Shown in pieces: positions 5,689-62,885 of a DNA stretch of 64,000 nucleotides. Position 1 is the first letter of the stretch. Each line of letters starts with the position of its first letter. Location: contig JAQURC010000001.1 in assembly GCA_028715785.1 (NCBI GenBank), positions 204,766-268,765 of the forward strand. The letters run 5' to 3'. The stretch is from Candidatus Omnitrophota bacterium (GTDB lineage Bacteria; Omnitrophota; Gorgyraeia; Gygaellales; Profunditerraquicolaceae). The notes under the pieces are model-generated. The model had not been told where the DNA came from. It made no database searches and saw only the letters and a program-made list of their open reading frames with translations. The position numbers and the translations under genes were made by a program.

Positions 5689-5764
5689 TCCCCCTTAGCT
5701 CAGTTGGTAGAGCGAGAGACTGTTAATCTCCAGGTCCTAGGTTCGAGTCCTAGAGGGGGAGCCA
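5689..5764 (+). tRNA. tRNA-Asn (anticodon GTT)
   Basis: Cloverleaf with acceptor TCCCCCT/AGGGGGA, anticodon loop CUGUUAA, T-loop GTTCGAGTC and an encoded CCA. Confidence 0.9.
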
Positions 5765-6145
5765 TCTTTACGATTCCGCAAACCTTGAAGGTTAGCGGTT
5801 AACGCCTTACTCTTCGGAGTGAGGCGTTTTTGTTAGCGGAGATCACTCGGTAAAATTTGCTGCAGGGATGGTATATATAAGTCCAAGGCTATGTGGTTGA
5901 TTAATGCGGGGAGGGATTCTAGGGTATTGCCAGTCCTTGGAGTGGTGTCACTTTGCGCCACAGAAGCCTTACCGGGGATCAAGCATATTGTTCCAGACGT
6001 CTGTAATAATCCGGTTGGGAATTATCGGTATCCTAATTTAAGATTACGCTGGCATAGTATGCATTATTTTAAAATTAATTGCCACTAAGAAGAAAAGATG
6101 TATAATAAACAAATAAAGGGGCTACAAAATAAGCAAGGAGAAGAA

Positions 6146-7111
6146 ATGGCGACGTCAGAACAGATTAAGGCTTTGATCCGTTCCCACTACGACGATAATT
6201 CAGAGCAATTCTTTTCGACTGTATTACAGATTGCGGCCCATGAAGCACGCCAGGGGCATGGAGAGTTGGCCCATGAGATTCGCGATCTTGTTGATAAAAC
6301 TAGGAAAGAAAAATCTGAGAAGAATGTTCTGGTTTTCCCTCAGGAACTTAACGGTCTTATTTTTTCTGAAAAACCAGATGTTCCGTTATCAACCCTTGTT
6401 GTTAGTGATCAACTAAAGGTTAGGATTGAAAGAATCATAACTGAATTTCGCCAGCAAAATAAACTTAAAAACCATGGTTTGATTCATCGTAGAAAAATAC
6501 TTTTAGCCGGTGCGCCAGGAACAGGTAAGACTATGACGGCTAAAGTTCTGGCATCAGAATTAAAGCAATTATTACATATTATTCAGATGGACCGTCTTGT
6601 TACAAAATTTATGGGTGAGACTAGCGCAAAACTTAGGCAGATTTTTGATAAAATGTTGGTAATGCCGGGAGTTTATTTATTTGATGAGTTTGATGCTATC
6701 GGTAGCGAAAGAAACTTAGAGAATGATGTTGGTGAAATGCGCAGAGTGTTGAATTCTTTTCTACAGTTTATTGAAAAGGATACGTCAAATAATTTAATTA
6801 TCGCAGCTACAAATAACTTACGTTTACTTGATCGTGCATTGTTTCGAAGATTTGATGATGTTCTTCATTATGGTCTCCCGGAACAAACCTCCCGCTCTAG
6901 ATTAATCATGAATGTTCTAAGTACCTTTCGCGATAAGGATTTTTCTTTAGAAAGAGCTGCTAGGATTGCCGACGGACTTAGTCAAGCCGAAATTGATCAT
7001 GTCTGTAGAGATGCAATAAAGTTAACAATTTTAGACAATAAAGATTTCGTTGCCTCTAATTTATTTGAGAGTCTGTTAAAAGAACGCCGCTCAGCCTGTC
7101 AGAAAAAGTAA
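6146..7111 (+). CDS. AAA+ ATPase (classic AAA clade), ietA-like
   Basis: Walker A GAPGTGKT, Walker B LFDEFD and second region of homology ATNNLRLLDRALFRRFD. A strong RBS AGGAGA precedes the ATG at 6146, and the ORF is also open from 6098. Confidence 0.7.
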   Translation: MATSEQIKALIRSHYDDNSEQFFSTVLQIAAHEARQGHGELAHEIRDLVDKTRKEKSEKNVLVFPQELNGLIFSEKPDVPLSTLVVSDQLKVRIERIITEFRQQNKLKNHGLIHRRKILLAGAPGTGKTMTAKVLASELKQLLHIIQMDRLVTKFMGETSAKLRQIFDKMLVMPGVYLFDEFDAIGSERNLENDVGEMRRVLNSFLQFIEKDTSNNLIIAATNNLRLLDRALFRRFDDVLHYGLPEQTSRSRLIMNVLSTFRDKDFSLERAARIADGLSQAEIDHVCRDAIKLTILDNKDFVASNLFESLLKERRSACQKK

Positions 7112-7123
7112 CAATCATTAGTT

Positions 7124-9601
7124 ATGCCCAATAAAAGATTTCAGCATCTTTTTATTAAAGAAGCTCATACCGCAAAAAATTTTACAAGCACTTCATCCGG
7201 TGGCACTAAGCCACGCATTCCCGTTCGAGAAATAGAAGCCCACAGCCGTTTCCTCCAGGAAAAATTTAACGCCGCATGGACTCAAGCCCAAAATAAGCAG
7301 GCCGTAATACATGCTGCTAGGGAGGGGGTGTATATTGAATTTAAAGGTGATCCCGGGTATGAGTTAGTTACTAAAAGCTTGGAAGATATGCGTTCAAAGA
7401 GGATTCGATTATTAAATGTTCGAACTGAAAAAGAAGGTGAATTGCCAGTTATTTATGCCACTGTATATGTCCCCAATGATAAGAAAAATCATTTTCTAAA
7501 AAAAATTCAAGAGTATGCAGCAGAAAAATTAGAAACAGACCCGCCTAAAAATGCTTCATTGATTAATAGTATAGCAGATATCAGGGAAGCCATTATGGTT
7601 GAGTCATTTTGGCAAGATAAAAAAGAATTAATCCCTTCTACAGATGGCGCCTGGTGTGAGGTCTGGCTGAGTAGCGATAAAGAAGCAGTGCTGCAAAGAT
7701 TTAATGATCTGCTTGTTCGTGAAGAGATTAGGGCAGCCGATGGTTTAATAAAGTTTCCGGAGAGGATGGTGAAATTAATCTTTGTCAATAAAAGACAGCT
7801 AGAACGCCTAACGACATTATCTGATGATATTGCAGAATATCGTTTAGCAAAAGAAACAGCTGCTTTATTGCTAGAAATGGAAAACAAAGATCAAATGGAA
7901 TGGGTTAAAGATTTATTGTCGCGATGCCAAGTTAATCCTAACCCTAATGTTTCTGTTTGTATACTGGATTCTGGTGTAAATAACGGCCACCCGCTGCTTT
8001 CGTTAGTATTAAATAATGATGATTGTCAGGCTGTTGATAATAGTTGGGGGGTAGATGATCATGATGGGCATGGTACCCTTATGGCCGGGTTGTCTGCTTA
8101 TGGCGACTTACTGGCCTGTTTATTTAATAATCAAGCTGTTCGTCTGTACCACTGTCTCGAGTCTGTAAAAATGCTTCCCCCTCCGCCACAGAAAAATGAA
8201 GTAAAGCTCTGGGGGTATATTACCGATCAGGCAGTTAGCAAGGCTGAAATTAAGGCTCCTGAAAGAAAACGCATCGTATGCATGGCCATAACTTCAACTG
8301 ATACTCGAGATCAAGGTCGTCCTAGTTCTTGGTCGGGTCGTATAGATCAGCTCGCAATCGGAGAGGATAACGGAAACAAGAGGCTTTTTATTATATCCGC
8401 GGGGAATATGGATATTGATAGTATATTAAATTATCCTGATGCGCAAGAGATAGAATCTGTTCATGATCCGGCTCAATCATGGAATGCGCTTGTTGTTGGG
8501 GCGTATACCAAATTTGATCAAATAACAGACCGGACTTTTGCAGGTTTTATCCCAGTCGCCAAAGCCGGGGGACTGTCTCCTTTTAGCACAACATCTCAAA
8601 CATGGGAAGGTAAGTGGCCAGTCAAGCCTGATATTGTTATGGAGGGCGGGAACGTAATTCATGACGGCAAGGGATTCTGGGACCATCCAGGGGAAGTTTC
8701 TCTTTTGTCTACTTATCGTGATACGACAAAAAGTCATTTTCGTTTATTTAATATGACAAGCGCTGCAACCGCACAAGCTGCTTGGTTTGCTGCCCAAATT
8801 CAAAATATTTATCCCGATATTTGGCCAGAAACTATTCGAGCTCTTATGGTGCATTCATCGGAGTGGACTGATACTTTAAAAGCTCAATTCTTACCGGCAC
8901 AACCCACAAAAACAGATTATTCTAGGCTTCTGCGTATTTGTGGTTACGGAGTGCCCAATTTAACAAGAGCACTTTACAGCGCAGCAAATAATTTAACACT
9001 TATTGCTCAGTCTGAGCTACAGCCTTATGACAGAGAAGAAGGTGCAAGTAATTACAAAACAAAGGAAATGCATCTTTATGATCTGCCTTGGCCGAAGGAA
9101 GTCCTGCAAGAATTACCGCCAGATATTAAGGTTCAAATGCGTATTACCCTTTCTTACTTTGTAGAACCTGGACCAGGAGAAATTGGATGGAGGGATCGTT
9201 ATCGCTATGCTTCTCATGCGTTACGGTTTGATATAAAGTCTCCCAGCGAAACAAAAGAGCTTTTTCAAAAAAGAATAAATTTGGCAGCCAGAGAAGAGAA
9301 AGAAGGTCATCCTGGCACTCAAGGCGCATCAGATCACTGGACAATCGGGTCTAATGGTAGAGACAAGGGTTCGATACATTCTGATATTTGGGATGGTAAT
9401 GCTGCAGATCTGGCTGAATCGGGCGTAATTGCTGTTTATCCTGTAATCGGTTGGTGGCGCGAAAGAGCTTATCTTGGGAGATGGAACCAGAAATGTAGGT
9501 ATTCAATTATCGTTTCAATAATGACCCCTGAAGAAAAGATAGACATTTACACTCCTGTTGCGCATAAAATTGGTATTGCCGTACCCATTCCTATCAGCTA
9601 A
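7124..9601 (+). CDS. S8 family subtilisin-like serine peptidase (825 aa), ietS-like
   Basis: Catalytic triad motifs in order: ILDSGV (Asp), DGHGTLMAG (His) and MTSAATAQAA (Ser, GTSMA-like). Lies 12 nt after the AAA ATPase gene. Confidence 0.75.
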   Translation: MPNKRFQHLFIKEAHTAKNFTSTSSGGTKPRIPVREIEAHSRFLQEKFNAAWTQAQNKQAVIHAAREGVYIEFKGDPGYELVTKSLEDMRSKRIRLLNVRTEKEGELPVIYATVYVPNDKKNHFLKKIQEYAAEKLETDPPKNASLINSIADIREAIMVESFWQDKKELIPSTDGAWCEVWLSSDKEAVLQRFNDLLVREEIRAADGLIKFPERMVKLIFVNKRQLERLTTLSDDIAEYRLAKETAALLLEMENKDQMEWVKDLLSRCQVNPNPNVSVCILDSGVNNGHPLLSLVLNNDDCQAVDNSWGVDDHDGHGTLMAGLSAYGDLLACLFNNQAVRLYHCLESVKMLPPPPQKNEVKLWGYITDQAVSKAEIKAPERKRIVCMAITSTDTRDQGRPSSWSGRIDQLAIGEDNGNKRLFIISAGNMDIDSILNYPDAQEIESVHDPAQSWNALVVGAYTKFDQITDRTFAGFIPVAKAGGLSPFSTTSQTWEGKWPVKPDIVMEGGNVIHDGKGFWDHPGEVSLLSTYRDTTKSHFRLFNMTSAATAQAAWFAAQIQNIYPDIWPETIRALMVHSSEWTDTLKAQFLPAQPTKTDYSRLLRICGYGVPNLTRALYSAANNLTLIAQSELQPYDREEGASNYKTKEMHLYDLPWPKEVLQELPPDIKVQMRITLSYFVEPGPGEIGWRDRYRYASHALRFDIKSPSETKELFQKRINLAAREEKEGHPGTQGASDHWTIGSNGRDKGSIHSDIWDGNAADLAESGVIAVYPVIGWWRERAYLGRWNQKCRYSIIVSIMTPEEKIDIYTPVAHKIGIAVPIPIS

Positions 9602-9868
9602 TATTTTTTGTATAACATATTGCCAAAGTTATAATTTTGAGGAAGAGGGTGGTACTTTGGGAACGTCCCCGAACCAACTTTAACGGCTAAAGAAAGGATC
9701 GTTATTCGACCAGGCCATTCCTAAGCTTTTGGATGCTATAGGGGGTCAAAACAACCCCCGGGGTGGGTATGGTTTTTTGTTAAGAGTTAAGCAAAAGACC
9801 GTATTGCTTATCGTAGAAAATATCTCTGCAGATTTTGTCGGTTGCGAATGTGTGATACAGGCAGCCTT

Positions 9869-9896
9869 AGCCCTAGTGAAATCTAGGGCTTTTTTC
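9869..9896 (+). terminator. candidate rho-independent terminator inside the island spacer
   Basis: Stem AGCCCTAG/CTAGGGCT with a 6-nt loop, followed by TTTTTT. Confidence 0.4.
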
Positions 9897-10085
9897 TTGT
9901 ACGGACCAGGCAGCATCTTAAGGGAACATTTGAAGCCGGCGAGGGTTTCCGTTGGGGATATGAAATACCTTGATAATTCAAATGGTCAGGTTTAAGATAC
10001 CTTAGATGGAGATTTCAAAAGCTACTGTTAGGGTTATTATTAAAATACAAACTGTCAGGATTATGCTTTTTAAGCTATTGTAGAA

Positions 10086-11423
10086 ATGAAAAAAGACAAA
10101 AAAATAATATTATTAGGACTATCCGCAAAGCGCTTTTTTAGAAAAGTAAGAAGTAGATTAATCAGAAGGATTTATGATGGAGGTAGGGTATCTAAACAAA
10201 AAAGACATAAATATCATATTTCTTCAAGAAAACATTATGCAGAAATAAAAGCTTCAAAACATGGAGGATTAGAATCTATTACAATCAAAATTCCAAAGAA
10301 ATTTTGTTTTATTAAGGATCCCGTTGGTACAAGTAGATTTTTCGAGAGATTAAGAAAAAAATTTCATAAAGGTTTACCTCGCGATATTTTTATAGATCAT
10401 AAATCCACTGAAGAAATTGGCTTAGCTGCCTCTTTTTTATTCGATCAAATCATGAAAGAAGAAGCAAGGTTTTGGGCAGGGAGTAGAATCAAAATAAGGT
10501 TATCCGGAGTGATATCTGACTTTAAGCAAGTCAATAATTTCTTATTATCATTTGGAATTTTGAATGAGTTAGGTATTTCGCATAGGAATTTTGGTAACGA
10601 AAAAGTCGACGTTGACTATGCTGAGAAATATTATACTTTTAAAATGAGCGGTTCGAAAGCGAAACCTCAATTGGCAAGCTTTGCAAGTGTTGGCGTAGTA
10701 GAATATTTTAATACTTGTCTTGAATATAATGGATTCAAAATAGCGGATCCGGCAAGAATTTCACTTGTTGATAGAATGGGAGAGATTATTTGTAACGCAG
10801 AAGAGCACTGTGGGAATGAAAAAGGGGAATGGTTTGCTTTGGGGTGCTACAATAAAGAAACTCATAATTGTAGCTTTGCAATAATTAATTATGGAAAGAC
10901 AATTTATGAGACCTTATCTGATAAAGATTCCACTGCTTCTGATGTAATAGAGAATGTGCAAAAGATTATAGATAGCCATAGACCCTTTTGGCAGAAGATT
11001 TACGGTTTGATGTTTAAGAAAGAGCATGAAGAGCCTACTTGGAGTATTATGGCTCTACAGGATGGCATTAGTTCAAAAAGAACAAATACAGGAAGAGGAC
11101 GAACTAGAGGCCAAGGGATCATGGATGTTTTGAGTTTTATAGAATTGATTAAAGCCGGAAGCAATGGGGCTGAAATTTGCTTGCTATCCGGGCATTCGGC
11201 TGTTAAGATAGATTACAGTTATCCAATAATCGCTAAAGAGGTAGGGTCAGCAAAAGAAAAACGAAGGTTTATTACATTCAATAAGGAAAATGATTTAAAG
11301 ATTCCTCCTGACGGAGATAAGGTATTATTTTTTGACGATAAATTTCAAGGAACAATCTTTACTGGAAGTTTTAAGCTGGACAAAAAATATTTGGAAGAAA
11401 GGTTAAAGCAGGAAAATGGATAA
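10086..11423 (+). CDS. GHKL/histidine-kinase-like ATPase family protein (445 aa); RsbW-like N-box, no histidine kinase dimerisation/H-box seen
   Basis: N-box E-x3-N-A-x2-H in EIICNAEEHCG. Glycine-rich G-box-like segments QDGIS and GRGRTRGQGI. Basic N-terminus. Confidence 0.5.
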   Translation: MKKDKKIILLGLSAKRFFRKVRSRLIRRIYDGGRVSKQKRHKYHISSRKHYAEIKASKHGGLESITIKIPKKFCFIKDPVGTSRFFERLRKKFHKGLPRDIFIDHKSTEEIGLAASFLFDQIMKEEARFWAGSRIKIRLSGVISDFKQVNNFLLSFGILNELGISHRNFGNEKVDVDYAEKYYTFKMSGSKAKPQLASFASVGVVEYFNTCLEYNGFKIADPARISLVDRMGEIICNAEEHCGNEKGEWFALGCYNKETHNCSFAIINYGKTIYETLSDKDSTASDVIENVQKIIDSHRPFWQKIYGLMFKKEHEEPTWSIMALQDGISSKRTNTGRGRTRGQGIMDVLSFIELIKAGSNGAEICLLSGHSAVKIDYSYPIIAKEVGSAKEKRRFITFNKENDLKIPPDGDKVLFFDDKFQGTIFTGSFKLDKKYLEERLKQENG

Positions 11424-11763
11424 GTTAATTAATTTAGCTGATTTTCTCATAGGCAATGAAACTACTTTAGTTGGAAGGGATAATGGGGAAAATGTCTTTG
11501 ATAAGCTTGTTAAGGCAGGCTTAAGTTTCGTTGATCTTGAAAGTAAATTTGATAAAATAATCATTGGTATACCTGATAGAGTAGTCAGCATCAATAAATC
11601 TTTTTTTCTAGGTTTGTTTGAAACCGTCATTGAAAGATTAAAAAAGGGCGGTTTTTATGCAAAATATGATTTTGAAACAAGCGAGCATATTAAAAATAAA
11701 ATTGAAAGTCATGTAGATGCGGCCCTATTAAATGCAAGTCAAAAGGATATCTTAAATGCCTGA
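11416..11763 (+). CDS. small STAS-like protein resembling DUF4325 (115 aa)
   Basis: Pattern L-x-G-R-x-x-G…II-I-G-I-P-D-R-V-V-S-I-N-K-S-F-F-L-G-L-F matches the DUF4325 STAS-like consensus as I recall it. The start overlaps the GHKL gene by 8 nt. Confidence 0.45.
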   Translation: MDKLINLADFLIGNETTLVGRDNGENVFDKLVKAGLSFVDLESKFDKIIIGIPDRVVSINKSFFLGLFETVIERLKKGGFYAKYDFETSEHIKNKIESHVDAALLNASQKDILNA

Positions 11764-12346
11764 TCCTATTGTTAATTCTACAATAGCGCAAAATGCTGTT
11801 GCTGTTTCGGCTGCTGCTTTCAACCCTTCAGCTTTTTGGTCCATGTTGACTCTGGTATTCAACATAGTTCTTAGCATGTTTAATATTCTCTGGTTTCATA
11901 TTAAGCGATCAAACAAAAGAAAATATGAGCTGGAGTTTACATTTTATGAACTTTTAGTAATTAACTCTTCCAAAGATCTGATTGGGTTGTTATCAAAAAT
12001 GAAGAAAGAGTTAAACTCTTTAGCTCTTAAAGCCCGGGGCGGAATTAAAGCCGGATTTTCTAGGAAAGATGTAGAAGAACATATTGAGCACTTAGATCAA
12101 TTTATATTCGAATTACAGGTAAATACTATTCCACTGATTAAAGGATATTCAATGGATCTGGGAAGTAAAATTGATAAGTTAGTCGAAGATTGTCACGATC
12201 AAACGACAGATCTATTTAGCAAATTTGATCGTCAAACTATCCCCGTTGATTTAGAGAATAGGCTATATGGTAGCTTTTCAGTTCTGGAAACTCAATATCT
12301 TGAGCGTATATTTAAAAATATAAAAGAGTATTGTCCCCACTGTTAG
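11756..12346 (+). CDS. single-pass membrane protein with coiled C-terminal domain ending in CPHC (196 aa)
   Basis: Hydrophobic segment FWSMLTLVFNIVLSMFNILWF. Translationally coupled to the upstream gene by an ATGCCTGA overlap. Confidence 0.5.
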   Translation: MPDPIVNSTIAQNAVAVSAAAFNPSAFWSMLTLVFNIVLSMFNILWFHIKRSNKRKYELEFTFYELLVINSSKDLIGLLSKMKKELNSLALKARGGIKAGFSRKDVEEHIEHLDQFIFELQVNTIPLIKGYSMDLGSKIDKLVEDCHDQTTDLFSKFDRQTIPVDLENRLYGSFSVLETQYLERIFKNIKEYCPHC

Positions 12347-12520
12347 AAAATTACTTTGTATCCCAAGCTTGTATTCTAAATATGTTTTTTAAAGTTTCTT
12401 TTTGTCAAAGGCACTAATTGTACAAGTTATGCAAGCACTAAGTTAGCTTCTTCAAATAGTACTTTAATAATACTAAGTTCGGTTTCAAGCTCAATATCCC
12501 TGTTGCGAAATGCGTCATAT

Positions 12521-12536
12521 AGGGGGAGCCAATCTT
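12521..12536 (+). repeat. attR-like direct repeat of the tRNA-Asn 3' end
   Basis: AGGGGGAGCCA(A)TCTT is identical or near-identical to 5754-5769. Confidence 0.5.
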
Positions 12537-12573: not shown

Positions 12574-13149
12574 ATGAAAACCAAGAACGTTTATATTATT
12601 GCCGGCCCAAATGGTTCCGGTAAAACCACGTTCGCAAATGAATTCTTGCCGGAATACGCAAAATGCCAGAATTTTGTCAATGCCGACCTTATTGCACAAG
12701 GCTTATCGCCTTTTTCTCCCCGGGCAGCAGCAATAAAAGCCGGTAGGCTCGTATTAGAGCAGATCCGTAGTTTGGCAGAAAAGAATGTTGATTTTGCATT
12801 CGAGACAACCTTATCTGGTAAATCTTACGTGCGATTGCTAACAAGCTTAAAAAATAAAGGCTACACAATAAATCTTTTCTTTCTTTGGATTCCCAACGCC
12901 GAGTTTGCTTTGGGTCGTATAAAAGACAGGGTAGCCAGTGGCGGACATGATGTACTCGCAGCAGACGTAAAACGAAGATTTAATAGAGGGATATATAATT
13001 TCTTCAAATATTATAAGCCTTTATCCGATACTTGGTTATTATTCAATAACGCAGACGCTATACCTCGCCTAATTGCCAGAGAGAAAGACGGGAAAACGGA
13101 TATTATTGATAAAGAAATGTATGAGAAAATAATAAAATTCACGAGGTGA
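12574..13149 (+). CDS. zeta-toxin-like / AAA_33 P-loop kinase family protein
   Basis: N-terminal P-loop YIIAGPNGSGKTT. Size and motif spacing fit the zeta toxin family. Confidence 0.6.
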   Translation: MKTKNVYIIAGPNGSGKTTFANEFLPEYAKCQNFVNADLIAQGLSPFSPRAAAIKAGRLVLEQIRSLAEKNVDFAFETTLSGKSYVRLLTSLKNKGYTINLFFLWIPNAEFALGRIKDRVASGGHDVLAADVKRRFNRGIYNFFKYYKPLSDTWLLFNNADAIPRLIAREKDGKTDIIDKEMYEKIIKFTR

Positions 13150-13154
13150 ATCTA

Positions 13155-13316
13155 ATGACAAAAAAGACATTACAGTTAAAAGCCATAAAAGCGCTCAAAG
13201 AAGCCGTGCGTAAAGTAGTAGAGGAGCATAAGCACAGCGGTCGGCGTCTTGTTGTGTGGCGTAATGGTAAATTAATGCGGATACCCGCTTCTCAAGTGTT
13301 GCGAAAAGCCAATTAA
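13155..13316 (+). CDS. unannotated 53-aa ORF directly downstream of the kinase (possible antitoxin/partner)
   Basis: ATG lies 6 nt after the kinase stop. Translation is MTKKTLQLKAIKALKEAVRKVVEEHKHSGRRLVVWRNGKLMRIPASQVLRKAN. Below the 60-aa cutoff of the ORF track. Confidence 0.35.
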   Translation: MTKKTLQLKAIKALKEAVRKVVEEHKHSGRRLVVWRNGKLMRIPASQVLRKAN

Positions 13317-13455: not shown

Positions 13456-13571
13456 ATTGCTAAACTCATCTTCTCCAAATATTTGTTGTATAACCTTTTG
13501 CTGGAGTTATAATTATATAAAATGTAGCGCTCTAAAAAACTGTGATGAGATAAACCAAAAACAAGAGAAAC

Positions 13572-13997
13572 ATGGCTTTTAAAGAGAAATTACAAACGGG
13601 GAAATTGGCTGCGGTTTTATCTATATTCCTTATCTTATTTGTTATAGCTTGGCCGCTTTTACATGGCGCCTCGGACGGGAAATTATACCAGTTTCTTGCT
13701 TACGTCATTGATAAGTCGCCTGAGTGCGCGTCTTGTCCGCCGCAGAACGTTTCAGTTTCTAACATAATGAATGCACGGAAAGAAGACCCCTCGGTATTGA
13801 CAATCACAGTGGGCTCTAGCCCGCATATCGGTAAGTTAGTCATAGGGGCGCAATACCGTTTTTATATTAAAATTTATCAAGCATCAAATTCCCTGGAACT
13901 TATTTATTATGAGGAAGCCAACAACCAGCAGCCTATGAATGATTATGCAGCCCAGAGAATCAGCTTTCCAGAGTTTCTCCGAAAATTAGGGAAATAG
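13572..13997 (+). CDS. hypothetical membrane-anchored/secreted protein
   Basis: N-terminal hydrophobic helix, no known motif. Confidence 0.4.
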   Translation: MAFKEKLQTGKLAAVLSIFLILFVIAWPLLHGASDGKLYQFLAYVIDKSPECASCPPQNVSVSNIMNARKEDPSVLTITVGSSPHIGKLVIGAQYRFYIKIYQASNSLELIYYEEANNQQPMNDYAAQRISFPEFLRKLGK

Positions 13998-62474: not shown

Positions 62475-62885
62475 GGGGGTGAAAGGGTTCGACTTAAGAT
62501 ATGTCGGATAAAAGCAGCATGCCGCGGACGCATGGTTAGCCGCGTTAATAACCCGTGCACAATATAAACGCAAACACAAACACGCAAGTGTTCAATCGCT
62601 TAGCGCCAAAAACAGCAATGTTTTTAGCGCCTGTAGCGGGCGTACCAGCCTTCGGACTTCATTAAGTCCGAAGCCTCTAACCGTCTACGCCTACGGGACG
62701 GATTAGGGCCTTAGTAGGATAGCTCCGGTGGTTGCCTTTGAAGCCGGAGCGAAATTTAAAAGGCTGCTCCTTGCAAATCCTGCCATGTAGAAGTTGCAAG
62801 GTTAAGATAAATTACAAGGCTAAGCATGTAGCGGCTTTTATTTGATTACTTAAGGACGGCGGTCCGATTCCGCCCACCTCCACCA
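62475..62885 (+). ncRNA. ssrA: transfer-messenger RNA (tmRNA)
   Basis: 5' GGGGGTGAAAGGGTTCGAC pairs with the 3' CACCTCC-A-CCA end, including a G3:U wobble. T-arm GGCGGTCCGATTCCGCC. Lies directly after smpB. Confidence 0.85.

Follow-up and report, generated by a model that had tools for sequence, protein, structure and literature searches.

What is a closely spaced AAA+ ATPase and S8 subtilase gene pair doing on the chromosome of a bacterium from the candidate phylum Omnitrophota, and does it belong to ietAS, a family that includes plasmid-stabilising toxin-antitoxin systems as well as systems that protect against phages? The pair lies in a 64,000-nucleotide stretch of the 303-kb contig JAQURC010000001.1 (the window, whose coordinates are used throughout), and an earlier note made from its letters had described two open reading frames (ORFs) of 337 and 825 aa with the gene content of ietAS. 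Both ORFs are present: ietA (6098–7111 as the longest ORF) comes first and is followed, after a spacer of 12 nt, by ietS (7124–9601). Both genes are on the plus strand, as are the protein motifs, tRNA gene, repeats, hairpins and promoter match located below. No obvious Shine-Dalgarno sequence precedes ietS.

The product of the first gene, IetA, is a putative antitoxin with the features of a single-ring, classic-clade AAA+ ATPase. It matches the Pfam AAA family (PF00004, E=7e-29), and the closest proteins of solved structure are p97/VCP D2, Cdc48 and AFG2 (E about 1e-46), in agreement with the clade proposed previously. The ATPase motifs that had been quoted were all located, comprising Walker A (GAPGTGKT, 6509–6532, aa 138–145), Walker B (LFDEFD, 6677–6694, aa 194–199) and the Arg-finger region (ALFRRFD, 6836–6856, aa 247–253), and a pore loop is found at 6602–6619 (TKFMGE). 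Walker A and Walker B, the pore-loop sequence KFMGE, RRFD and the sensor-1 Asn show little or no variation across 37 IetA homologues. While the ATPase ORF can be read from 6098 as originally described, we consider that the real gene probably starts at 6146 and encodes 321 aa (6146–7111). This is because the ATG at 6098 with which the long ORF opens falls within the strongest sigma-70-like promoter match of the region (TTGCCA-16-TATAAT, 6079–6106; 11/12 in a consensus scan, and a pattern match only), GGAG lies 6 nt upstream of the ATG at 6146, alignments with pTiC58 IetA and with most of 75 homologues begin at residue 17 of the window IetA, and the IetA genes of the closest relatives are called at 323 aa.

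The second gene encodes IetS, an 825-aa S8 subtilase and the putative toxin of the pair. Its catalytic domain (aa 275–609, 7946–8950) is the sole match in a Pfam search of the protein (Peptidase_S8, PF00082, E=7.4e-64), which returned no Inhibitor_I9 propeptide. The catalytic residues D282 (7967–7969, in motif ILDSGV), H316 (8069–8071, in motif DGHGTLMAG) and S546 (8759–8761, in motif MTSAATAQAA) lie in the motifs that the earlier reading had quoted, and together with the oxyanion residue N428 (8405–8407) they are invariant among 61 IetS homologues. IetS has no signal peptide, and hydrophobic runs within its first 60 aa are at most three residues long; lacking a hydrophobic N-terminal segment, it is predicted to reside in the cytoplasm. 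The roughly 270 N-terminal and 200 C-terminal residues noted beyond the S8 core correspond to 274 and 216 residues without a Pfam match.

Structures for both extensions, whose prediction had been recommended, were modelled with AF2, the full IetS model having a mean pLDDT of only 73. The N-terminal region (aa 1–272, 7124–7939), delineated from AF2 models, weak Foldseek matches and alignments, is modelled as a long helix followed by two beta-alpha-beta-beta-alpha-beta (ferredoxin-like) modules, and alignments show that it is conserved family-wide, pTiC58 IetS included. When searched alone with Foldseek, it resembles tandem ACT domains, with weak matches (TM 0.2–0.3). The C-terminal region (aa 610–825, 8951–9598), delineated from PADLOC IetS profiles, the pTiC58 alignment, the AF2 model and Foldseek, is predicted to be mostly beta and sits where kexin, furin and Tk-SP have a P-domain or beta-jelly-roll. 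The best whole-model Foldseek matches are pro-subtilisins and kexin-like convertases (ProN-Tk-SP 3afg, EpiP, PCSK9 and Kex2/furin; E=1e-13 to 1e-7), which, like IetS, have an S8 core placed between an alpha/beta module at the N-terminus and a beta domain at the C-terminus. However, the TM-scores of these matches are low (0.3–0.45), and IetS differs in having neither a signal peptide nor a Pfam I9 domain and in its far longer, two-module N-terminal region. Since we found no sequence relative of IetS in the PDB and Foldseek returned only generic subtilases for its model, no mechanism can be transferred from solved structures.

The ietAS assignment itself was borne out by the profile search that had been suggested as a check. 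With PADLOC, IetA matched PDLC02196 (E=3.2e-68, 229 bits; residues 18–333 against positions 2–325 of 374) and IetS matched PDLC02198 (E=3.6e-30, 102.6 bits; residues 184–813 against positions 169–776 of 795). These are also the best models for the founder pair from the Agrobacterium Ti plasmid pTiC58, which scores similarly (239 bits for IetA and 85.6 bits for IetS). In BLASTP comparisons, the window IetA aligns end to end with pTiC58 IetA (WP_012655016.1; 47% identity, E=8e-99) and the window IetS aligns over residues 2–816 with pTiC58 IetS (WP_010974867.1; 38% identity, E=1e-174), N- and C-terminal extensions included. The two pairs also share gene order and a short spacer, and their products measure 328 and 836 aa in pTiC58 against 321 or 337 and 825 aa in the window. 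With HMM E-values down to 1e-68 and a founder BLASTP E-value of 1e-174, we judge the sequence features of the pair to be far beyond chance. The settings of the two differ, in that the window pair is chromosomal and located on a tRNA-Asn islet of an Omnitrophota bacterium, whereas the pTiC58 pair resides on a conjugative plasmid of an alphaproteobacterium.

Scores against the NCBIfam equivalogs IteA (NF042959) and IteS (NF042956) fall well below their cut-offs, at 196 bits versus 510 for IetA (E=1e-57) and 52 bits versus 900 for IetS (E=3e-14). The IteS match spans residues 185–634 of IetS and leaves the first 184 and last 191 residues unmatched, and in the NCBIfam ranking for IetA the families PAN, CdvC, CDC48 and FtsH come next. 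The pairs from pTiC58 and from Klebsiella/E. coli and Alteromonas plasmids are likewise below the IteA and IteS cut-offs. As the window pair and the founder both miss these cut-offs, we place the former in a pTiC58-like branch of ietAS, outside the narrow anti-phage group named by NCBI. There is no SNF2-family helicase gene beside the pair, which is flanked upstream by a tRNA gene and a terminator-like hairpin and downstream by ORFs without a Pfam domain. We regard the locus as a bona fide two-gene ietAS module, a clear and ordinary new example of a known family that in itself will not surprise a specialist.

Within this family, the founder is pTiC58 ietAS, a toxin-antitoxin system (Yamamoto et al. 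2009, cited by PMC13069673 and PMC5006074). IetS has been described as the toxin and IetA as its antitoxin (PMC13069673). The S026/S025 pair of Salmonella Genomic Island 1 (SGI1), or SgiAT, is a tested toxin-antitoxin pair characterised as a stabilisation system, whose proteins show 50% identity to IetA and 36% to IetS (PMC5006074). This divergence is about that of the window pair (47% and 38%), each being measured against the founder. SgiAT further resembles the window locus in that an integrated mobile island carries an ATPase antitoxin together with an S8 toxin, the corresponding roles in the window being putative. These closest tested relatives, pTiC58 and SGI1, were assayed as stabilisation toxin-antitoxin systems.

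Anti-phage activity has been tested for ietAS of the type described by Gao et al. 2020, which is the type that NCBIfam IteA and IteS represent, and for the systems of B. cereus m1293 and E. coli ECOR52. These are likewise two-gene systems of an AAA+ ATPase and an S8 protease; however, the window pair scores far below the IteA and IteS cut-offs, and the published anti-phage tests therefore concern more distant relatives. In the B. cereus system, which defends by abortive infection, SPbeta YosG is the trigger (bioRxiv 10.1101/2022.08.27.505566). Protease activity is required for ietAS defence, and mutated ietA resisted cloning (PMC13069673). The ietHAS system (Liu-DS4) contains IetA and IetS components like those of the window but differs in having a helicase gene, of the SNF2/DrmD-like type, which is essential to it along with protease activity (PMC13069673). 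Toxicity of IetS with neutralisation by IetA is known only for pTiC58, SGI1 and ietHAS (PMC13069673 and PMC5006074).

Turning to the setting of the pair, the suggestion that it lies on a tRNA-associated island proved correct. A low-GC islet (5765–12531, 6.8 kb; GC 0.38 versus 0.45 in the flanks) begins directly after a tRNA-Asn gene (GTT, 5689–5764; ARAGORN, and Rfam RF00005 at 68 bits). A repeat search identified the 18-mer at the 3' end of this tRNA as the attL-like left boundary (5747–5764) and a degenerate direct copy (16/18) as the attR-like right boundary (12514–12531); no second match to the 18-mer was obtained in 100 shuffles. The ietAS pair has a GC content of 0.38–0.41 compared with 0.45 for the genome, and there is no integrase on the islet. 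We interpret the islet as a small, horizontally acquired, integrase-less element at tRNA-Asn. SGI1, by contrast, is mobilisable, has an integrase and measures 43 kb. A consensus scan placed a terminator-like hairpin with a 12-bp stem and T run after the tRNA (5801–5828; a pattern match only) and a second one 268 nt past the ietS stop codon (9869–9890), which likely marks the end of the ietAS transcript. An 88-aa ORF at 9729–9995 was rejected as a gene, since it holds the second hairpin and has no family match. An Rfam scan in and around the pair found the tRNA and no other RNA element.

The claim that the neighbouring genes are defence-like held only weakly: an unannotated three-gene cassette downstream (445/115/196 aa) and a gene for a zeta-toxin-like kinase are its neighbours, the genes upstream are dnaX, recR and an ABC-F gene, and no recognisable defence system was found within the islet. 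Exact-pattern scans of JGI metagenomes for an empty islet site gave no match, and no record was returned when RecR, ABC-F and zeta-like proteins from the flanks were looked up by exact sequence; these negatives say little, as the source organism is probably absent from that collection or gene starts were called differently.

It could be asked whether such an islet is decaying and its ietAS unexpressed or non-functional. The lack of an integrase, the degenerate right repeat and the lack of an obvious Shine-Dalgarno sequence before ietS are all compatible with a remnant, but we consider this very unlikely, given that both ORFs are full length relative to their homologues, that the catalytic and nucleotide-binding residues are all intact, that promoter-like and terminator-like sites flank the pair, and that an intact toxin gene would be unlikely to persist without a working antitoxin.

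Related loci show how consistently the two genes travel together. Among those with room upstream to be counted, which span more than 20 phyla, all 75 have ietA directly upstream of ietS and in the same orientation, and the order is the same on pTiC58 and on plasmids of Klebsiella, E. coli and Alteromonas. Homologues at 57–72% identity are spread across many phyla, with a patchy distribution that is incongruent with phylogeny. Homologues are carried by 476 plasmids, 331 of which are conjugative. Phages seldom carry them (2 of 50,697 phage records). About a fifth of the relatives (15/80), one of them from Desulfosarcina cetonica, are embedded in type I R-M operons, eight of the 80 in the arrangement hsdM-hsdS-ietA-ietS-hsdR, and of the closest two relatives one (L093) adjoins BREX and the other (L091) adjoins HsdR, AbiEii and Fic genes. 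Clustering of neighbours across the 80 loci recovered type I R-M genes (15 loci), integrases (6 loci) and nothing else as recurrent, and a conserved third gene in the module was accordingly rejected. Linkage of ietAS to the downstream three-gene cassette was also rejected because the cassette is present in none of the 80 related loci. The repeated placement of clade relatives in R-M operons and beside BREX, AbiEii and Fic genes is a pattern typical of defence cargo.

These observations bear on two other functions that could be proposed for the pair. One is that of a housekeeping two-component ATP-dependent protease for protein quality control, with IetA as the unfoldase partner. In its pore loop and Arg fingers IetA does resemble AAA+ unfoldases that thread their substrates, and the solved proteins nearest to it are Cdc48/p97, PAN and FtsH. 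Yet a conserved protease with its chaperone, which the earlier note had named as the finding that would speak against ietAS, is contradicted by the patchy distribution across phyla, by the low GC of the pair and the tRNA repeat bounding its islet, by homologues on plasmids and in R-M and BREX loci, and by the toxicity of relatives when the ATPase is missing, and we regard it as extremely improbable. The other is that of a pure addiction module, stabilising the islet, a former plasmid or an integrative element by post-segregational killing and having no anti-phage role. The characterisation of the pTiC58 founder and SgiAT as stabilisation systems, the position of the window pair in their branch and outside the NCBIfam anti-phage equivalogs, and the abundance of homologues on plasmids, many of them conjugative, would all be expected under this explanation. 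It is nonetheless unlikely in our view, as relatives from the same clade repeatedly lie inside type I R-M operons and beside BREX, AbiEii and Fic genes, more distant ietAS systems protect against phages, and stabilisation and defence are not mutually exclusive.

We therefore favour, with considerable confidence, a model in which a pTiC58-branch ietAS on an acquired islet encodes an IetS toxin restrained by IetA, with a phage cue leading to abortive infection and with addiction to the element as a further effect. IetS would be a cytoplasmic subtilisin-like protease toxin with its Asp/His/Asn/Ser set intact, and IetA a one-ring Cdc48-D2-like AAA+ antitoxin whose Walker A and B motifs, pore loop and Arg fingers are all intact. 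In uninfected cells, IetA would keep IetS harmless in an ATP-dependent manner; IetS would be released or activated by a cue of phage origin or when the element is lost, and would then cleave cellular and/or phage proteins and halt growth. Speculatively, IetA may restrain IetS through its N-terminal helical domain and pore loops, which would engage the tandem ferredoxin-like region of IetS, and the trigger may interfere with this hold on the IetS N-terminal region. That IetS is toxic and is neutralised by IetA, that defence needs protease activity, and that infection is aborted in response to a phage protein are inferred from relatives, and a role of the pair in phage defence is suggested by context, through close relatives that adjoin R-M, BREX and AbiEii genes.

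The position of ietAS within some R-M operons invites comparison with the anticodon nuclease PrrC, whose gene in the E. coli prr locus lies in the order hsdM-hsdS-prrC-hsdR. As ietAS is found at this position, flanked by hsdS and hsdR, in 8/80 relatives, a back-up suicide role comparable to that of PrrC is suggested for these copies, although the PrrC effector is an RNase whereas ietAS comprises a protease and an ATPase, and the window locus has no R-M genes. A bolder proposal, which we hold to be rather improbable, is that the N-terminal tandem ferredoxin/ACT-like region of the IetS clade is a sensor of a ligand or phage protein that gates the protease. Under this proposal ietAS would be a guard module; where it takes the place of prrC in type I R-M operons it would fire once restriction is disabled, and in the Omnitrophota bacterium it would stand alone. 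If true, a sensor-gated IetS would represent a new sensing logic for protease-based abortive infection.

Returning to the favoured model of an IetA-restrained IetS toxin, the locus provides a clean, intact example of ietAS from a poorly studied candidate phylum. It also offers handles for mutagenesis, namely the pore loop of IetA, its N-terminal helix with the sequence pattern ALQxAAxEAxxGH, and the N-terminal double module and C-terminal beta domain of IetS. As the pTiC58-like branch to which it belongs is large, spans many phyla, is strictly two-gene and is found repeatedly within type I R-M and BREX loci, the case is strengthened that the ietAS known from plasmid stabilisation as toxin-antitoxin systems and the ietAS known from phage defence are the same kind of module.

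Both open reading frames (ORFs) proposed in the earlier note were found on the forward strand, at 6098-7111 for ietA and 7124-9601 for ietS, co-directional and 12 nt apart, and a sequence check located all of the quoted motifs where they had been placed. The longest ietA ORF encodes 337 aa with a Pfam AAA domain (PF00004, E=7e-29), and its best solved relatives are the p97/VCP D2 ring, Cdc48 and AFG2 (E ~1e-46), in agreement with its description as a classic-clade ATPase; after IteA, NCBIfam ranks PAN, CdvC, CDC48 and FtsH. The 825-aa ietS product contains a Peptidase_S8 domain (PF00082, E=7e-64) at residues 275-609, with 274 residues before it and 216 after it that Pfam does not assign, close to the roughly 270 and 200 claimed. 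The ietA ORF stands, with a revised start. The ATG at 6098 is overlapped by the best promoter-like site in the region (TTGCCA-16-TATAAT, 6079-6106), and a GGAG stands ahead of the ATG at 6146. In alignments, IetA of pTiC58 and the majority of 75 homologues match only from residue 17 onwards, and the closest relatives' ietA genes are called at 323 aa. The true gene is therefore probably 6146-7111.

The assignment of the pair to ietAS was supported by HMM searches and by alignment to the founder pair. The PADLOC model for IetA (PDLC02196) matched over nearly its full length (E=3.2e-68) and that for IetS (PDLC02198) over residues 184-813 (E=3.6e-30), with five more PADLOC IetS models also matching the protease. 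On the same models the window pair scored 229 and 102.6 bits and the founder 239 and 85.6, so the window pair is as good a fit to these profiles as its namesake. The founder pair, located on the Agrobacterium Ti plasmid pTiC58 (NC_003065.3, 97873-101373; WP_012655016.1 and WP_010974867.1), is identified as the IetA/IetS toxin-antitoxin pair in PMC5006074 and PMC13069673. Window IetA is 47% identical to its founder end to end (E=8e-99), and window IetS 38% identical over residues 2-816, both extensions included (E=1e-174). S026/S025 of SGI1, a working toxin-antitoxin system, has diverged from IetA and IetS to a similar degree (50% and 36% identity). The window pair missed the NCBIfam IteA/IteS equivalog cut-offs (196 versus 510 bits and 52 versus 900), as did the pTiC58, Klebsiella/E. 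coli and Alteromonas plasmid pairs, so the pTiC58-like branch is distinct from the narrow group named anti-phage by NCBI. Judged by sequence, the locus is a further member of the already known ietAS family.

A one-genome-per-species scan yielded at least 572 confirmed loci, from which the best 80, spread over more than 20 phyla, were retained. Among these, ietA lies directly upstream of ietS on the same strand in 75, and the contig ends immediately upstream of ietS in the other five. Residues D282, H316, N428 and S546 are invariant across 61 IetS sequences, and 37 IetA sequences show little or no variation in the Walker A motif, KFMGE pore loop, Walker B (FDEFDAIG), VGEMRRVL stretch, sensor-1 Asn, RRFD and the N-terminal helix ALQxAAxEAxxGH. 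With these motifs intact in the window pair, decay to an inactive remnant is improbable. The best 120 of 2444 protein matches, all full-length and 57-72% identical, are scattered over Omnitrophota, Desulfofundulus, Syntrophomonas, Actinomycetota, Chloroflexi, Planctomycetota and Deltaproteobacteria, which indicates horizontal spread; an identical protein is on record for a Candidatus Omnitrophica MAG, on a contig of 303 kb. A tblastn search of plasmids returned 476 records with a homologue, the Agrobacterium Ti plasmid among them, and in 380 the match was full-length; the ATPase gene sits just upstream in all three loci inspected closely and is annotated there in several further listed matches. 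Only 2 of 50,697 phage records hold a homologue.

We clustered the neighbours of the pair in the best 80 of the at least 572 loci and scanned the nearest ones with PADLOC and Pfam. Type I restriction-modification genes surround the pair in 15 of the 80, and integrases adjoin it in six. Eight loci (L010, L011, L014, L032, L037, L041, L063 and L084) share the single-strand order hsdM-hsdS-ietA-ietS-hsdR, so that ietAS takes the hsdS-hsdR slot of the type I operon, the slot that prrC occupies in the E. coli prr locus. The two relatives closest in IetS (71-72% identity) are both in defence settings, one directly downstream of a BREX cluster encoding a PglX-like methylase, PglZ and BrxL (L093, 1-6755) and the other on an island that also carries HsdR, AbiEii and Fic genes (L091, 130-3231 and 16403-18484). 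Such surroundings are the usual signature of defence cargo. The earlier note had named a housekeeping protease with its chaperone as the case against ietAS; the distribution of the pair and the restriction-modification, BREX, AbiEii and Fic settings of its relatives contradict this, making it very improbable.

Within the window, dnaX, recR, an ABC-F gene and tRNA-Asn lie upstream of the pair. The 3'-terminal 18 nt of this tRNA gene (5747-5764) are repeated with 2 mismatches at 12514-12531, a second match seen in none of 100 shuffles, and GC drops from 0.45 to 0.38 over 5765-12531. The repeat and the GC drop define the tRNA-associated island proposed earlier as an attL/attR-like islet of 6.8 kb, on which no integrase was found. 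An independent Logan contig of 6781 bp (L001, from run SRR22315506) reproduces 5740-12520 exactly and ends no more than 7 nt from the two repeat copies, and exact-protein look-ups gave no record for the proteins encoded by the flanking recR, ABC-F and zeta-like genes; these data are consistent with, and short of proof for, a discrete and variable unit.

A terminator-like hairpin (9869-9890) parts ietAS from three overlapping forward-strand genes (10086-12346; 445, 115 and 196 aa; GC 0.33). An 88-aa TTG-start ORF (9729-9995, forward) holds this hairpin, has no family match and is more probably ietS 3' untranslated region than a gene. Just beyond the right boundary, a forward-strand gene (12574-13149) encodes a zeta-toxin-like P-loop kinase (Pfam Zeta_toxin, E=5e-10). 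The claim of other defence-like genes nearby is weakly supported within the window, because the cassette proteins have no Pfam, PADLOC or NCBIfam match and the zeta-like gene is outside the islet. The 445-aa protein has just 61 relatives, all unnamed, among 5.8 billion proteins, and the same set of three genes (about 440, 120 and 190 aa) turns up again in unrelated genomic contexts (L087/L088, from an uncultured Treponema, and L089/L090). We regard the cassette as a candidate mobile module, uncharacterised and possibly with a role in defence. A 53-aa ORF (13155-13316, forward) starts 5 nt after the kinase gene, and the two are a possible toxin-antitoxin pair.

A 37-nt direct repeat (9600-9636 and 13478-13514, 84% identity) holds the palindrome TTATAAC-N12-GTTATAA and a promoter-like TTGTAT-16-TATAAT; one copy begins in the ietS stop codon and the other lies outside the islet, upstream of a 141-aa ORF at 13572. 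It could act as an operator or promoter, or be what is left of a second insertion. Farther along, a tmRNA gene (62475-62885, forward; Rfam 176 bits) has an unusually long tag by ARAGORN, ANTNTQVFNRLAPKTAMFLAPVAGVPAFGLH, without the usual -LAA end, which may reflect an error in calling the resume codon or a trait peculiar to the lineage.

PDB sequence and Foldseek searches found no structure of IetS or IetA. The AF2 model of IetS (mean pLDDT 73, pTM 0.70) best matched ProN-Tk-SP, EpiP, PCSK9, Kex2/furin and unprocessed pro-subtilisin E (E 1e-13 to 1e-7, with low TM-scores), subtilases in which an N-propeptide is kept and/or a C-terminal beta domain is present. In a separate model of residues 1-272 (pLDDT 76), a long helix precedes two beta-alpha-beta-beta-alpha-beta modules, whose weak best matches are the tandem ACT domains of SerB2, aspartate kinase and the AHAS regulatory subunit (E from 6e-5, TM 0.2-0.3). 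The region is thus modelled as a double ferredoxin-like module, with a possible regulatory or inhibitory role. As window IetS lacks a hydrophobic N-terminal segment, it is predicted to be cytoplasmic.

In relatives, IetS is the toxin and IetA the antitoxin; defence needs protease activity, and cloning of mutated ietA was not achieved (PMC13069673). The system of B. cereus m1293 works through abortive infection, with the SPbeta protein YosG alone setting off its toxicity (bioRxiv 10.1101/2022.08.27.505566), and E. coli ECOR52 ietAS gives limited protection alone and synergy with Zorya II. By analogy, we infer that the window pair works in the same way: an ATP-dependent ring of IetA, equipped with pore loops, would restrain cytoplasmic IetS until a signal from a phage, or the element's loss, released it, and the freed protease would arrest the cell through proteolysis. 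Action of IetA on the N-terminal module of IetS is speculation. A pure addiction module would be compatible with this reading, and we regard it as rather unlikely. Past phylogenetic breadth the window copy adds little; the mildly novel points belong to the clade, namely the recurrence in the hsdS-hsdR slot and the conserved N-terminal region with its predicted double module.
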